Of a DNA stretch of 51,368 nucleotides, positions 3,096 through 48,000 are shown in pieces. Below the pieces are notes generated by a model. That model did no database searches, had not been told where the DNA came from, and saw only the letters and a program-made list of their open reading frames with translations. Origin of the DNA: Candidatus Woesebacteria bacterium (lineage in GTDB: Bacteria > Patescibacteriota > Microgenomatia > Woykebacterales > 2-01-FULL-43-14); contig JAGVAV010000025.1 of the NCBI GenBank assembly GCA_020060105.1, positions 1-51,368 of the forward strand. Reading direction: 5' to 3'. The stretch's first letter is position 1. Each line of letters begins with the position of its first letter. The position numbers and the translations under genes are program-made.

Positions 3096-3199
3096 AAATA
3101 AGACTTCACTTCAATTTTAACCAAAGTTGCAAACTTATGGATCTGGGGTGTATAGTTCACCAGATTAAGAAGCTTAATCAACAAATAAGGAGAGGAGAA

Positions 3200-3559
3200 A
3201 TGATCAAAAAAATCCTAGGCATACTCGCCCTTTTAGTCATCGTTCTACTGATACCCTTCACCATAACTGTGTTATACGAAGTGGCTGATCGGCTGGACCG
3301 GATGGGAATTCGAACCCAGGTTAGGGGGGTATGGTCTTGTTTTAAACAAAGAATCTAGGCTTGTCCTGCGGGAAGAGGGGAAAGTTCCCGAGAGAAACAA
3401 GATGACCTGGATTGTCAGCTGACTGAGGCAATCAATAGCGGTCAGTACAACATTTTGCAGATCGAAACCTTTTACCACGAAACGTACATGGTTAAAGCGG
3501 AAGTTTACTATTTTGCCAACGAACCAACCCCCGATATTCTGGCAGGACCGGTGGTTTAA
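3200..3559 (+). pseudogene. membrane-anchored hypothetical protein interrupted by in-frame TAG at 3356-3358
   Basis: ATG 3200 with strong RBS and TM helix. The same frame stays open from 3359 to TAA 3557-3559, then a terminator hairpin at 3544-3570. Confidence 0.55.
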
Positions 3560-3628
3560 ACCCCGGTCCTTTCTCATTCAGGTGGCTAATTTGGGTCATC
3601 TGTGGTATAATTTTCAAGCAAAACACCC

Positions 3629-3695
3629 GGGCCAGTAGCTTAACCCATATTTAATCGGGGTCAATTGGCAGATCCATCGGCTGACGAACTTTTAA
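3629..3695 (+). pseudogene. relic tRNA-Lys 5' half with 21-nt D-arm insertion
   Basis: GGGCCAGTAGCT[TAACCCATATTTAATCGGGGT]CAATTGGCAGA matches the first 23 nt of the intact tRNA-Lys once the insert is removed; a CTTTTAA loop-like word follows. Confidence 0.8.
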
Positions 3696-3738
3696 ACAAT
3701 TTATCTTCCAGTCGTGAGATTATTTATCGAGTGTGTGA

Positions 3739-3814
3739 GGGCCAGTAGCTCAATTGGCAGAGCAGTTGCCTCTTAAGCAATCGGTTGGAGGTTCGAGTCC
3801 TCCCTGGCTCACCA
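3739..3814 (+). tRNA. tRNA-Lys(CTT)
   Basis: Full cloverleaf, anticodon arm GTTGC-CTCTTAA-GCAAT, TTCGA loop, encoded CCA. Confidence 0.97.
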
Positions 3815-26421: not shown

Positions 26422-26644
26422 AATAATTAAATTCCAAATTCAAACCCAATTTAATCGGGTTTAAAGCAATAATAACCAAACAAAGCTTAGATTTAAAACG
26501 GATCGATTAAAGATTAAGGAATTTTTCTTCTTTTCTTTAATCATTAATCGTTCCGCCAACCGAAATCTGGCTCTACCGGACGAAAGGTGTCCCCCTTCAC
26601 ATAAAGTTTTGGGGACATCCCACATAGCCTTCGGCGACGTGGGA

Positions 26645-26721
26645 TGGCGCCCCTGGAGGGATTCGAACCCCCGACCTTGACGTTAGAACCGTCCTGCTCT
26701 GATCCACTGAGCTACAGGGGC
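26645..26721 (-). tRNA. tRNA-Arg(TCT)
   Basis: Cloverleaf, A20, GACG-GTTCTAA-CGTC, GCCA end. Confidence 0.9.
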
Positions 26722-26818
26722 CCAACTTCGCTAAAGCTACGATGGGCAGGCCCAACTTCGCTTAAGATACGATGGACAGGCCCAACTTCGCTCGTCAACC
26801 CACGAGCTTCGATGGACA
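26719..26818. repeat. three tandem REP-like hairpin units (30, 30, 40 bp)
   Basis: GGCCCAACTTCGCT...CGATGG(G/A)CA at 26719, 26749 and 26779. Confidence 0.85.
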
Positions 26819-34681: not shown

Positions 34682-34720
34682 GGGCCTAAGCAAAATCCAA
34701 CTGCTTAGGCCCCTTTTCTT
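34682..34720 (+). terminator. intrinsic terminator
   Basis: GGGCCTAAGCA...TGCTTAGGCCC then CTTTTCTT. Confidence 0.7.
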
Positions 34721-34788
34721 GAAAAATGAGCCTAAATAAGATATGATAAAGGCATCAACTCGCTTTACTTGGGTTTGAGGGAAAACAT

Positions 34789-34845
34789 GAAGGCCGTAGC
34801 TTAACTCTTACTTAATTAAAGTTAGTGGTAGAGCACAGAGTTATG
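34789..34845 (+). pseudogene. relic tRNA-His-like 5' half with 21-nt D-arm insertion
   Basis: GAAGGCCGTAGCT[TAACTCTTACTTAATTAAAGT]TAGTGGTAGAGCACAGAGTTATG. Without the insert it is a canonical tRNA 5' half ending TT-ATG, one change from TT-GTG. Confidence 0.7.
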
Positions 34846-34852
34846 CAGAAAT

Positions 34853-34893: not shown

Positions 34894-35388
34894 ATGCCAT
34901 ATATTGCCTGTACTATTTGTTCGAAAGAATTTTATATTAAACCAAGCCACCAAAGAAAAGGTTGGGGAAAGTACTGCTCAGTAAGTTGTCGGTCCAAATC
35001 CCAGTTTAAAGGTCGTTTGGTAAGTTGTTTCATTTGTGGAAAAAAGGTCTATCGTTCACCCAAGGCCTTAGCTCACTCAAAAAGCAACAAATATTTCTGT
35101 ACTAAATCCTGTCAAACCTTGTGGAGAAATCAGGAGTATGTTAACGAAAAAAATTACAACTGGAAAAACGGCGAGCATGCCTACCGGAACATATTAAAAA
35201 GAGCTGGTAAGAACCCCATATGCTTCATCTGCAAAATCACTGACGAAAGGGTCTTGGTTGCTCATCACAAAAATCACGTAAGAACTGATAATCAAGCGTC
35301 AAACTTAGTTTGGTTATGTCGGAACTGTCATTATTTAGTTCACCAGGATAAACAGCTAGATAAAATAGTCATGGAGGCGTTGGTGTAA
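34894..35388 (+). CDS. HNH endonuclease with two N-terminal Zn fingers (homing-endonuclease-like)
   Basis: 2x CxxC...CxxxC, NYNWKNG, then CFIC...AHH...DN...NLVWLCRNCH...H; stop codon lies within tRNA-His. Confidence 0.9.
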   Translation: MPYIACTICSKEFYIKPSHQRKGWGKYCSVSCRSKSQFKGRLVSCFICGKKVYRSPKALAHSKSNKYFCTKSCQTLWRNQEYVNEKNYNWKNGEHAYRNILKRAGKNPICFICKITDERVLVAHHKNHVRTDNQASNLVWLCRNCHYLVHQDKQLDKIVMEALV

Positions 35389-35447
35389 TGGTAGCACAAT
35401 AGGTTGTGGTCCTGTTAGCGGGGGTTCGATTCCCCTACGTCTCCCCA
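35373..35447 (+). tRNA. tRNA-His(GTG)
   Basis: G-1:C73, GAGGCGT/ACGTCTC acceptor, ATAGG-TTGTGGT-CCTGT, CCA. Confidence 0.95.
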
Positions 35448-45058: not shown

Positions 45059-48000
45059 AAGTGGAAAGTGAAAAGTTAAAATCCGATAAAATCGGATTAA
45101 AAGTTAAAAATGATCGGTTTAACTTACAGTTATTAAAAGTCATCGCTTTCTTTCTTTTTATTGTTAGTCTTTCTTACCTTGTCTTTAATTTCAATGATCA
45201 AAATCTTAATCTTTCTTCTGAAACTCAAGCTCAAACTCCTGTATCAGGCGCTCCTTATCCTCAATCTTCAGTAATTACAGGGATAACATGGGATAATTCT
45301 ACCAATGTTATTCGTTTAGCCTCCGGATCTGATAACTGGCCAATAACTTGGGCTGATGATGATAGTCTTTATACAGCTTATGGAGATGGTTGGGGGTTTG
45401 ATCCAAAATTGCCAACAAAATTAAGTTTAGGATTTGCCAAAGTATCAGGTTTCCCCCCGAGTACATCTGGAACAAATATCCGTTCAGTAGACGAGCAAAT
45501 TGGTGATGGAGCATCAGGGAAAAAGGCCAGCGGTATGTTAATGATTAACAGAATCTTATATATGTGGGTTAGAAACGCCGATAACAACGGCAATCAATGC
45601 CAGCTTGCCTGGTCAACAGATTATGGAATTAATTGGACTTGGAGTAATTGGAAGTTTGCTGAGTTTGGTTATTGTACTTTTATCAACTTTGGAAAAAACT
45701 ACTCAAATTCTCGTGATAACTACGTTTACTCCGTTACTCCAGATCAACCCAGTGCTTATCGAAACGCAAATAATTTAGCTGCTGATAGGTTTATTTTAAT
45801 GAGAGTGCCAGTAAATGAAATAACTAATAGGAATGCTTATGAATTCTTTACCGGAGTTGACAATAATGGTAACCCTCTGTGGAGTTTAGATATTTTAAAG
45901 AGAGCTAGTGTTTTTAACAATCCAGGTCGGGCTTATCGTTCTGGAATAAGCTACAACGCTGCTTTAGGAAGGTACTTATGGTGGCAGGTTATACCTGATT
46001 CTGGAAGTGATCTAAGAGTAAGCGGAGGTTTTGGTGTTTATGATGCTCCAGAGCCATGGGGGCCCTGGACTACAGTATACTATACAGAAAAATGGGATGT
46101 TGGCCCGGGAGAAACAGGAAGTTTTCCGACTAAATGGATGAGTTCTGATGGGAAAACATTGTATTTGGTATTTTCTGGTGATGATAATTTTTCAGTTAGA
46201 AAAGCAACTTTGTCCACTACAGGCAGCGCCGTTGCTTTATATAATTCCCACTATTTTACCTATAACAACACTCCTGTCATGCTTTTAGGGGACAGCGGTA
46301 CTCAATCAGTGATGCAAAATGGCAATATTGACTATCAAGACTGGATCAATGAGTTTGAAAGCAAAGGTATTAAGTCAGCTATGGTTTGGGCTTGGGTGGC
46401 TCCTAGGCAAAAAGTAGACGGCTCTGTTGTGGAATCAAGATATGGTTATGTCGTGCCAGAGGTAATGCCCTGGCAAAGAACAGGGACGTCAACAGCCACT
46501 GACGGTAAACCGACATACAGTCTTTTACAGCTTGATGATAACTACTTTAACCGTCTAATAGGCCTTTGTTCTTATATGCAATCTAAGGGTATGGTTTTGC
46601 TGATAACCGTTTGGGACGGGGGAGCCAAGTGGGCTAATGGTTATCATCCTTTCTGGGAGCCAAACGGCGGGCCAATTCCTTCGAGTATCTCCGGCACCGG
46701 GACAACTTTTCGAGATGCTTTTTACACGTTTGATGAATACACCAACAGCATCCTAAATGAAATTTACTCTGACACTTGGAGCTGGCAGAAAAAGAATAAA
46801 TATTTTCAGGAAAAGTTCGCCGACCGGTTGATTTCTGAAATTAACGGCAGTTGCGATAACGTCGTTTACGAAATGACCAATGAAGGAGCTCAAGTAGCAG
46901 GCTATGATGATTTCTGGCTTAGTTTCTTCAAGCAAAGAACCAACGCTCTCTTATCTGTTAATGTTGGCTATACAGTAACCAATAGCAATACCAACTCTAA
47001 TGTGGATTTCCGCAACTGGCACACGCCCACCTTTGATCCAGCCATAATTAATAGCAGCTGGAAGAATTACTTTAGTCAAACTCCTCTCAAACCGGCAATT
47101 AACTCTGAATCGGTTCCGGAATTTAGAGCAGGAACCAGCCCTTCTGCTGACGATACTAGAAAATTATTGTGGGCTACAGCTGTAGCCGGAGGCGGGGCTT
47201 TTATTCAAGACGATACGGTCTTTACTGACTACGACCCCAATGTTGCAGACTTTGATGGCCGGGAAATGAGAAACTATATGAGTTACATCAACAAATTTTT
47301 CAACGAGGGCACCGCTTCCGTCAAAGGCGCAAAACCGAAGTTTTGGGAGATGACGCCTAGTAACAGCCTAGTTACTTCCGGGACAGCTTACGCTCTGGCA
47401 AAAAGCGGAGCAGAATATATCAGCTACTTGCCTTCAGGAGGATCGACTACTTTAGATCTTTCAGGGGTAACGGGTAACTTTAACGTTGAATGGTATAATC
47501 CAAGAAGTGGTACTTATTCTTCTGCTGGAACTACCATGGGAGGGGCCTCCAAAACCTTTACCTCCCCTGACACTAGCGATTGGGTCTTATACCTAACCTC
47601 AACCCCCACCATAGCTCCGGTAACCATTTCCGGTGACCGGTTTTATTCAGGAGGCAGTCCGTACTTTCCGTCAACTAACTTTTTATCCAATGGCGCTACA
47701 TATAAAGCGACCCATGTCTACTTTTCCGATCAGCTTACAGATACTCAAAGGGCGGAAATGTTAACGGCTTTGAAAAATGAAGGGTATAATTCCATTTTTC
47801 TTTACACGATTAATCAAGGAGATTACGGCAGTAGAGTCGTTACCCCTTATGCCAGTGGAATAATCAGCGAGGGAGGAGCCTTTGATGAAACTAAAATCCA
47901 AAATTGGAAAACTCAGATGCAGGATATGATTTCTCAAGGATTAAGACCGATTTTGTGGCTTTTCCCTGACGATTCCTCAACTATCCACAACACTTCCACC

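Follow-up and report, generated by a model that had tools for sequence, protein, structure and literature searches.

The stretch of DNA analysed here, called the window throughout, is a 51,368-nt contig (JAGVAV010000025.1, assembly GCA_020060105.1) of a Candidatus Woesebacteria bacterium. The source genome comprises 1.09 Mb in 40 contigs with 48 transfer RNA (tRNA) genes; the window is its contig C10, and other C-numbers denote its other contigs. Two intact genes of the window, tRNA-Lys(CUU) and tRNA-His(GUG), are each preceded by the 5′ part of a tRNA that is split in its D-loop by a palindromic insert of 21 nt, read from the forward strand at 3641–3661 (site 1) and 34802–34822 (site 2). An open reading frame (ORF) for an HNH endonuclease-like protein lies between the second of these pieces and tRNA-His. 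The features of both sites are collected in Table 1.

The two inserts had been described in a first-pass annotation of the window as 14/21 identical and as lying outside any intact tRNA, and both statements hold. By direct count 14 of the 21 bases are common to the two. The shared 26-nt pattern TAGCTTAACNNNTANTTAATNNNNGT, which consists of TAGCT and the common insert bases, matches the window exactly twice, at the two sites, where 0.10 matches are expected by chance; two or more matches were obtained in 1 of 100 shuffles. At site 1, the flanks within the string GGGCCAGTAGCTTAACCCATATTTAATCGGGGTCAATTGGCAGA (3629–3672) correspond to the intact tRNA-Lys(CUU) gene at 3739–3814, the left flank to its bases 1–12 and the right flank to the 11 bases after these, with a match of 23/23. 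Thus, site 1 is a true 21-nt insertion in a truncated tRNA duplicate. Upstream of position +1 the displaced copy and the intact gene are without similarity. ARAGORN and Rfam call a tRNA at neither site and call the downstream intact genes instead. We conclude that both inserts are real and non-random. A tRNA intron, of either the group I or the archaeal bulge-helix-bulge type, was considered and rejected: the displaced copies are truncated, ending at position 23 to about 38, so that the host tRNA is incomplete.

Table 1. Features of the two insert sites and further palindromes in the window.
Feature	Position	Strand	Basis or remark
TGGTATAAT, candidate extended -10-like promoter element	3603..3611	+	17 nt 5′ of displaced tRNA copy; direct reading
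Displaced tRNA-Lys(CUU) 5′ copy, positions 1-14, T for C at 13	3629..3642	+	12/12 identity to start of tRNA at 3739
Degenerate 19-nt hairpin module, site 1	3643..3661	+	Aligns with C15, G021 and G014 copies; model R1 56.2 bits
CA and remaining D-loop, tRNA-Lys(CUU) positions 13-23, end of displaced copy	3662..3672	+	11/11 identity to intact tRNA
66-nt spacer, position of GIY-YIG ORF in relatives	3673..3738	+	ORF apparently lost here
Intact tRNA-Lys(CUU)	3739..3814	+	ARAGORN; Rfam 69.9 bits
Promoter-like site TTGAAA-17 nt-TATGAT, 5′ of second displaced copy	34719..34747	+	10/12 consensus match only
Displaced tRNA 5′ part, acceptor strand to D-loop TA	34789..34803	+	TAGCTYA...GAGC D-arm type, as in G026/G082 tRNA-His 5′ halves
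Most degenerate 19-nt hairpin module, site 2	34804..34822	+	R1 55.5 bits; TA on both flanks
Rest of displaced copy: D-loop, D-stem, anticodon-arm-like stretch, end TTATGCA	34823..34848	+	Resembles G026/G082 tRNA-His halves
HNH endonuclease-like ORF, 164 aa, stop TAA inside tRNA-His D-loop	34894..35388	+	ORF list and translation
Intact tRNA-His(GUG), unusual D-arm	35374..35447	+	ARAGORN, Rfam
Palindrome family member AAACCCAATTTAATCGGGTTT	26442..26462	.	Between tRNA-Arg(UCU) and tRNA-Ser(UGA)
Related palindrome AAATCCGATAAAATCGGATTA	45079..45099	.	Gene boundary

A motif scan of the source genome yielded a third and better-kept copy of the insert at C15:10208–10228, where it occupies the same D-loop position in a duplicated 5′ part of tRNA-Lys(UUU). 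This duplicate is followed by an ORF of 85 aa and then by the intact tRNA-Lys(UUU) gene, and the stop codon of the ORF falls within the D-loop of that gene. Residues 1–71 of the encoded protein match the GIY-YIG domain (PF01541, E 9.9e-15). The hairpin of 19 nt is located about 50 nt 5′ of the ORF; at its 3′ side the ORF is flanked by the tRNA and not by a repeat.

The conservation of this arrangement was assessed in 101 genomes of the same class (own genome included), among which none of the relatives is of the same genus and two are of the same family; G- and L-numbers denote genomes and loci. Homologues of the C15 GIY-YIG ORF were found in 89/101 genomes, often several per genome, a tally that includes the unpublished genome G086. 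In 22 of the best 30 homologue loci the ORF borders on or overlaps with the 5′ end of a tRNA gene on the same strand; three loci have a tRNA upstream and five are without a nearby tRNA. The tRNAs adjoining the 22 ORFs are those for Lys, Glu, Gly, Ala, Asp, Gln, Leu and Tyr, and in 20 of these loci a piece of the same tRNA is found within about 100 nt 5′ of the ORF, starting at tRNA position 1–2 in 14. Most of the displaced pieces are interrupted or followed by GC-rich hairpins, which are situated in the D-loop or replace the anticodon arm. The earlier suggestion that the inserts mark tRNA-linked nuclease cassettes is thus borne out, as hairpin-split tRNA 5′ copies adjoin nuclease ORFs both in C15 and in the relatives.

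The C15 layout, with the same hairpin at the same place in the D-loop, recurs at the two closest homologues (61% and 58% identity), which both adjoin tRNA-Lys(UUU); it consists of GCTCA, a 19-nt ACCCCGA...TCGGGGT hairpin, CA and the remainder of the D-loop. More distant homologues (35–41% identity) carry different hairpins at different positions. Since the closest homologues keep the same hairpin and the distant ones carry others, the hairpin type tracks the lineage of the nuclease. The hairpin consensus in the relatives is ACCCCGATTWAATCGGGGT (19 nt), then CA, and the conserved unit is a 7-bp stem with a variable loop of 5 nt. Comparison with the relatives also gives a better parse of the window inserts: D-loop position 14 is followed by a hairpin of 19 nt, a dinucleotide (CA or TA) is repeated, and all three copies of the source genome have T for C at position 13. 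Each 21-nt insert as first delimited includes the two bases that precede its 19-nt module. The strict 26-nt search pattern put forward with the first-pass annotation failed in 100 relatives (0/100 matched), because these keep GCTCA and not GCTTA before the hairpin.

A covariance model, R1, was built from five aligned copies and searched in 150 genomes. Strong full-length matches number three in the source genome and are otherwise confined to G014, G021 and G017 (3/149 other genomes), so that further instances in related genomes, which the first-pass annotation had named as its test, do exist; to these come the 21 tRNA-fragment loci of the species-wide scan described below. Numerous R1 matches of 22 nt are ordinary tRNA 5′ ends with the hairpin skipped. 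The G017 copy lies in a displaced tRNA-Arg(UCU) copy without an ORF. Pairing of the 7-bp stem reaches 88.6% across the five aligned copies. Only two pairs change on both sides, and 38/500 shuffles do equally well. When folded as DNA, the C15 copy is better than its shuffles (z -3.38) and neither window copy is (z -1.09 at site 1 and -0.58 at site 2). The claim that the inserts form hairpins with a covarying pair is weak for the window copies, which fold no better than shuffled sequence, and the covariation is modest.

The pattern AGCTYAACYCCGANNNNNTCGGGGTYA was searched in one genome per species, 185,579 species in all. On inspection, the 24 loci obtained comprise 21 tRNA 5′ fragments, two unrelated contexts (Actinomycetota and Halomonas records) and one unclear case. 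A GIY-YIG ORF 55–65% identical to the C15 protein is present at 17/21 fragment loci and starts about 35–70 nt after the hairpin; of the remaining four, one holds a 17-aa remnant of the ORF and three have only a short spacer to the tRNA. In 14 of these 17 loci, an intact tRNA is located downstream of the nuclease ORF or ORFs (Lys-UUU in 4, Lys-CUU in 4, Arg-UCU in 4 and Arg-UCG in 2). Once the 19 + 2 nt are excised, the displaced copy matches the downstream tRNA from +1 with at most 3 mismatches per 25 nt in 12 of the 18 loci having such a tRNA, with runs of identity up to 27 nt, and similarity before +1 is absent. The hairpin lies upstream of 17/17 members of the clade found in the scan, as the pattern itself required; two homologues found by protein also have it. 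Two scan loci, L129 and L138, carry tandem hairpins with CA or TA after each.

The titles of the scan records name Levy-, Blackburn-, Gottesman-, Roizman-, Woyke- and Woesebacteria and 'Microgenomates', and eleven read 'uncultured Gammaproteobacteria'. The latter metagenome-assembled genome (MAG) records include L120–L123, L126, L132, L135, L137, L139 and L142. These titles are probably mislabelled, because the MAGs carry the same cassette and hairpin, of the type known from the candidate phyla radiation (CPR), as the Levy-, Woyke- and Roizmanbacteria records.

Truncated 5′ tRNA copies ahead of intact tRNAs are common in the source genome. They were searched with blastn-short on the tRNA-masked genome, which replaced a scan with tRNA 12-mers that was swamped by chance matches. 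The native upstream region of the tRNA, either AT-rich repeats or a TGGTAWAAT element, adjoins the displaced copy and not the intact tRNA; therefore, the tRNA gene took the insertion and its 5′ part was rebuilt downstream. The TGGTAWAAT motif at site 1 (Table 1) is also present 5′ of many other tRNA genes of this genome, and a scan for two-hexamer promoters did not flag the site 1 element. In the relatives, the distance from hairpin to tRNA is about 258–304 nt with an ORF and 27–98 nt without one. By tblastn, no GIY-YIG match was obtained in the spacer of site 1. These sequence comparisons indicate that the Lys(CUU) copy of the window is a cassette whose ORF was lost. Just 5′ of site 1, at 3137–3559, a 73-aa ORF (3137–3358) stops at TAG and the same frame stays open until the TAA at 3557–3559; this may be a broken gene or two short ORFs, and Pfam gave no match for it.

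Several other displaced tRNA pieces were observed in the source genome. On the minus strand, C13:29880–29914 repeats positions 1–35 of tRNA-Ile(UAU) at 100% identity, 61 nt 5′ of the intact gene, and a Phage_integrase-family gene (C13:29062–29562) adjoins the 3′ side of that tRNA. At C19:12663–12800, tRNA-Leu positions 1–16, a double hairpin of 67 nt, positions 17–23 and 48 nt precede the intact tRNA-Leu(UAG); a partly deleted twin of this unit is located before tRNA-Leu(CAG) at C14:about 3200–3301, and both are without an ORF. C14 also holds a degenerate tRNA-Val piece. Directly 5′ of tRNA-Arg(UCU) in the window, positions 26719–26792 consist of 2.5 tandem units of 30 nt, each a leader piece plus a degenerate tRNA 5′ start, and a similar array of 4.3 units is found before tRNA-Glu at C38:9930–10058.

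At site 2 the neighbouring nuclease is of another kind. The HNH ORF matches Pfam HNH_3 with 16.2 bits, below the cut-off of 24.8, and homologues of its protein are present in 7/101 genomes (own genome and G086 included). The four closest (47–65% identity), from four other genomes, all lie directly 5′ of tRNA-His, which ARAGORN calls in three cases and which was read by eye in the fourth (L116). In G082 and G026, a 5′ half of tRNA-His that ends in the anticodon loop is found about 50 nt 5′ of the HNH ORF, without a hairpin. With its hairpin left out, site 2 is identical to these halves at 28/34 (G026) and 27/34 (G082) positions and it is unlike the tRNA-His directly downstream. The latter has an unusual D-arm, TGGTGTAATGGTAGCAC, in common with the tRNA-His behind the G026 HNH homologue (L115), and the two genes are identical at 31/35 positions over the first 36 nt. 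This unusual D-arm, common to the HNH loci of the window and G026, suggests a cassette-borne tRNA-His: judged from the sequences, the HNH unit probably comes with a tRNA-His of its own and has displaced the 5′ half that was resident there. The site 2 hairpin is then either a separate insertion or the leftover of an older GIY-YIG cassette. One DNA sequencing run (0.05 of sampled words) gave only tRNA-conserved pieces and one 230-nt contig identical to a portion of the HNH gene, and it showed neither joints nor alleles.

Loosened searches of the source genome place the insert in a family of palindromes with the core CCGATTWAATCGG and covarying outer stems. Five exact cores are present and, from a reading of the match lists, ~20–25 looser copies; all but a few of the 28 copies listed lie outside ORFs of at least 80 aa. 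Hairpins centred on ATTNAAT number 19, against 2–8 in shuffles. Three copies are situated directly 5′ of tRNA-Ser genes, and a role there as sigma-70 promoter or operator was dropped, the -35/-10 spacing not fitting by eye. In the relatives, the exact core was found in 36/101 genomes (own included) with up to 30 sites per genome (G021), compared with 0–2 per genome for a reversed-pattern control. A preference for the tRNA D-arm, as the first-pass annotation had it, is therefore only part of the picture: the module recurs in the D-arm of non-functional tRNA 5′ copies, but its core is also seen in intergenic DNA, apparent coding DNA and rRNA genes. Among nine loci given to Rfam, the core lies inside a 16S or 23S rRNA match in six (L008, L009, L016, L021, L024 and L029, from six genomes). 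These may be short insertions of the sort that has been recorded, without characterisation, in the rRNA genes of CPR bacteria.

Two side observations from the source genome are added here. Palindrome copies at C29:8414, 13454 and 16129 lie near a cluster of tRNA-Ser-GGA, Gln-UUG and Tyr-GUA genes (C29:15029–15298) without encoded CCA, whose anticodons duplicate others in the genome; this region may be mobile or phage-derived. At C32:22786–23256, the output of Tandem Repeats Finder, the only source for this feature, gives a repeat array with a period of about 61 and the repeat end ...TTTCTACTTTTGTAGAT, which we take to resemble Cas12a-type CRISPR repeats.

The flanks of the hairpin were compared between filled (displaced) and empty (intact) D-loops, which shows that 19 nt were inserted and that the two bases before them are repeated. 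This repeat is CA in the relatives and at both Lys copies of the source genome, where the left copy reads TA, and TA on both sides at site 2. Direct repeats of at least 2 nt around the maximal palindrome were present at 19/61 distinct core sites, where about 6% are expected, and their sequences vary (TG/CA, AA, GAA, CTGA, TTC, TTTG). Of 14 hairpins of 19 nt fetched regardless of flanks, seven, all in G021, read TCA-hairpin-CA in one orientation. The flanks represent either a short duplication of the target or a component of an oriented motif.

A target duplication, of 2–4 nt, would be expected if the hairpin were an autonomous element of about 19 nt, similar to repetitive extragenic palindromes (REPs) or miniature inverted-repeat transposable elements, that is inserted between TCA and A (TCAA-type sites) by a host or unknown enzyme; dead tRNA copies would then be neutral, well-matching landing places and the GIY-YIG link incidental. 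The dispersal of the core, including its presence inside 16S/23S rRNA, agrees with this, as do the excess and variety of the flanking repeats, the tandem hairpins of L129 and L138, and the hairpin in the site 2 half where the G026 and G082 counterparts have none. However, 17/21 D-loop instances adjoin a GIY-YIG ORF of one clade, both the type and the position of the hairpin follow ORF relatedness, and no linked transposase was found among the integrase- and Y1-family genes checked. Many of the flank repeats are moreover the identical TCA..CA, which may be an oriented motif, and sites within one genome are non-independent. We consider such an element unlikely.

REP sequences and the ends of IS200/IS605 insertion sequences are likewise short dispersed palindromes, read there as DNA hairpins by a small nuclease or transposase such as the REP-associated tyrosine transposases (RAYTs). 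REPs carry a conserved GTAG head, which was not seen at the non-tRNA palindrome copies listed in the source genome. Four Y1-transposase-like ORFs (PF01797, about 196–224 aa) are encoded at C21:24484–24783, C5:35317–35544, C22:1477–1698 and C1:18432–18602. The CCGATT-type palindrome is absent within 1.2 kb of all four, and unrelated hairpins of their own lie near each. As no Y1 transposase ORF is flanked by the palindrome, the RAYT link raised by the first-pass annotation was rejected.

The same annotation had divided the inserts and their flanks into 11-6-11, the geometry of Xer-type tyrosine recombinase sites. The sequence can be so divided, and the genome encodes two Phage_integrase-family (PF00589) proteins, which would be candidate enzymes for a dif-like core site. 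Yet the arms are complementary at 5/11 and 4/11 positions only, the two PF00589 genes lie on C36 and C13 and none in the window, and the unit conserved in relatives is a 7-bp stem with a 5-nt loop and not two arms around a 6-nt spacer. A recombinase core site is thus exceedingly improbable. Overall, the initial interpretation of the inserts as a D-arm-targeting mini-element, recombination scar or protein-binding site that might mark nuclease cassettes is partly supported.

A closer parallel is offered by the Ssn proteins, single-domain GIY-YIG nucleases of about 94 aa (PMC11893778, Chenal et al., Nat Commun 2025). According to the parts of that paper drawn on here, Ssn binds a hairpin repeat (NTS/SRM) solely as single-stranded DNA (ssDNA) and cuts a few bases upstream of it; cutting depends chiefly on the three bases that precede the palindrome and binding on the C that follows it, and the loop sequence is inessential. 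The ssn genes are usually flanked by the repeat, a hairpin-forming inverted repeat of 20–50 nt, and resemble insertion sequences, and hundreds of SRM copies are present in Neisseria. The system described here is similar in having a single-domain GIY-YIG protein (the C15 ORF, outside the window), a short GC-rich hairpin that lies by the gene and is dispersed in the genome, which gives the gene plus repeat the look of an insertion sequence, and oriented flanks, with TCA before and C after the hairpin. It differs in the location of the repeat, which is a duplicated tRNA 5′ end, and in that the ORF extends into a complete tRNA gene; the main text of PMC11893778 nowhere contains the word tRNA, a statement that does not extend to its supplements.

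Taken together, the reading we favour, and hold to be reasonably probable as a whole, is that the inserts are decayed cassette hairpins that split a displaced tRNA 5′ copy, and that the hairpin is the cognate ssDNA recognition module of the nuclease. Each insert is read as a decayed 19-nt GC-stem hairpin with a repeated CA or TA, splitting the D-loop of a non-functional tRNA 5′ copy (nt 1 to about 25). The cassette runs from the tRNA promoter through the displaced 5′ copy with its hairpin and a GIY-YIG ORF of about 85 aa to the complete tRNA, in whose D-loop the ORF ends. We take it for a selfish cassette common in Microgenomates-type CPR bacteria, with the C15 tRNA-Lys(UUU) locus as its intact member here; since the 5′ part is restored after the ORF, the cell retains a functional tRNA. 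The sequences show this architecture, its recurrence and the association of hairpin type with nuclease lineage, whereas reading of the hairpin as ssDNA by the nuclease, mobility of the pair and the cause of the exact start of the 5′ duplication at +1 are inferred. By analogy with Ssn and SRM/NTS, the small nuclease would read the module as a hairpin in ssDNA, and the oriented flanks would parallel the positions that matter for cutting and binding by Ssn. As the D-loop hairpin breaks the 25-nt direct repeat, it would hinder loss of the cassette by way of that repeat as well as any renewed use of the displaced copy.

Several results weigh against this reading. Both window copies are degenerate and without a GIY-YIG ORF, so that it leans on homology to C15 and to foreign copies. 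The stem invariance in the species-wide scan was imposed by the search pattern and is therefore no evidence of constraint. The tree of the GIY-YIG proteins, which omits 27 loci (L056–L082), is poorly resolved, with 2/14 inner branches well supported, and hopping between tRNA types is undecidable from it. The best NCBIfam match of the C15 ORF is to the GIY-YIG part of group I intron endonucleases, at 28.5 bits against a cut-off of 56, and its sequence matches in the PDB are weak (E 0.025 or worse). The published SRM pattern has three matches in the source genome, compared with 1–5 in five shuffles, and none at the three sites. The copy numbers, 5 exact cores here and at most 30 in a relative, contrast with the hundreds in Neisseria. 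Finally, the regenerated intact tRNA keeps an unsplit D-loop, and the hairpin alone therefore cannot give immunity to an enzyme that cuts the D-loop. One convincing match to the SRM pattern was observed on the minus strand at C14:52425–52453, where TGTCA, a TCCCCGA...TCGGGGA hairpin and TCCAG follow each other; it resembles both the Neisseria NTS and the D-loop hairpin in form.

The hairpin could instead act at the RNA level, as a leader stem that tunes expression of the nuclease or keeps the displaced tRNA piece from mis-pairing or processing. The displaced copy lies between promoter-like elements and the ORF and should be transcribed, RNase P RNA is encoded so that the tRNA can be excised from a long precursor, and unrelated GC-rich hairpins fill the D-loop or anticodon arm of displaced tRNAs elsewhere, which suggests a demand for structure over sequence. 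Nevertheless, the D-loop hairpin leaves the displaced acceptor strand free to pair, many copies of the same hairpin have no such leader (those in rRNA genes and apparent coding DNA included), and the published Ssn proteins do not bind RNA according to the parts of the paper drawn on here (PMC11893778). The stem is not an intrinsic terminator, as no T-run follows it; the sole terminator-like call is on the opposite strand and over the acceptor part. A role in RNA is, in our view, quite improbable.

Further systems were compared with the cassette as read here, that is, as a tRNA-lodged nuclease gene with its cognate hairpin. Integrative elements that target tRNA genes also leave a direct repeat of part of the tRNA with one functional and one displaced copy. 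They are generally integrase-based, kilobases long and cross over in the 3′ half of the tRNA; here, in contrast, the duplicated part is the 5′ 25 nt, its two copies enclose roughly 300 bp, and there is no adjacent integrase. SegB of phage T4 is a multi-domain protein whose gene sits between tRNA genes, and we know of no duplicated tRNA 5′ end or hairpin module described for it. In the part of the literature on SegB used here, it is a free-standing GIY-YIG homing endonuclease in a tRNA cluster that is inherited preferentially and leaves 2-nt 3′ ends (PMC2330249). The presence of a GIY-YIG nuclease gene among tRNA genes is thus a shared trait, and 2-nt 3′ ends would fit the 2-nt repeat found here.

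The mobile ORFs (mORFs) of fungal mitochondria carry a replacement for the end of the gene that they enter, as in Allomyces atp6 and in Glomus atp6, atp9, cox2 and nad3, according to the passages of PMC3630166 used here. Both there and here an endonuclease ORF lies in an essential gene together with a spare gene end, the native end being left dead. This layout, in which a displaced copy of the gene end coexists with a functional one, is seen for the C15 GIY-YIG cassette and for the window HNH unit, and the HNH–tRNA-His unit fits mORFs best because its functional copy differs from the displaced one. By comparison with those passages, the host gene here is a tRNA, the 5′ end is the part replaced, a hairpin module is added, and the ends of the GIY-YIG cassette are near-identical, as in a local duplication, and not foreign. 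Insertion sequences in CPR rRNA genes, some of which encode non-intron GIY-YIG proteins and many of which are short and uncharacterised in the portion of the report used (PMC11270868, J Bacteriol 2024), share with the present cassettes the bacterial group, the location in structural RNA genes and the position at tops or bases of stem-loops. That report differs in covering rRNA genes only, and the words tRNA, hairpin and palindrome are absent from its main text. Literature searches returned no account of a GIY-YIG cassette that resides in a tRNA gene and has a duplicated 5′ end and a hairpin.

The nuclease and the hairpin might further be a self-mobilising pair that invades tRNA genes through ssDNA, the hairpin being read, the D-arm cut and the cassette copied in, a proposal we regard as doubtful. 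In that event, the first ~25 bases of the tRNA would be regenerated exactly from +1 as the cassette is copied in. A boundary at +1 is seen wherever the displaced copy matches the downstream tRNA, which is the case in about two-thirds of the loci compared. It would fit RNA-templated repair from the mature tRNA or an unusually long target duplication.

The window features themselves are decayed remnants and mainly serve as pointers to the system. Few targets in any genome are as conserved as tRNA genes. If the cassette is as we read it, a tRNA-lodged nuclease gene that rebuilds the front of its host gene would enter essential genes by a third route, in addition to those of self-splicing introns and of islands borne by integrases. 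It is apparently very common in CPR bacteria, to judge from the breadth of the ORF family and from the tRNA linkage of most of its best loci. The cassette would account for the many relic tRNA halves and short inserted hairpins that make the annotation of tRNA and rRNA genes in CPR genomes confusing. It would also give Ssn-type ssDNA nucleases a concrete niche and a candidate natural substrate, the tRNA D-loop hairpin. Were the pair self-mobilising as well, a selfish gene would reside within an essential RNA gene in a new manner that needs no intron, and Ssn-type proteins would have a new biological role.

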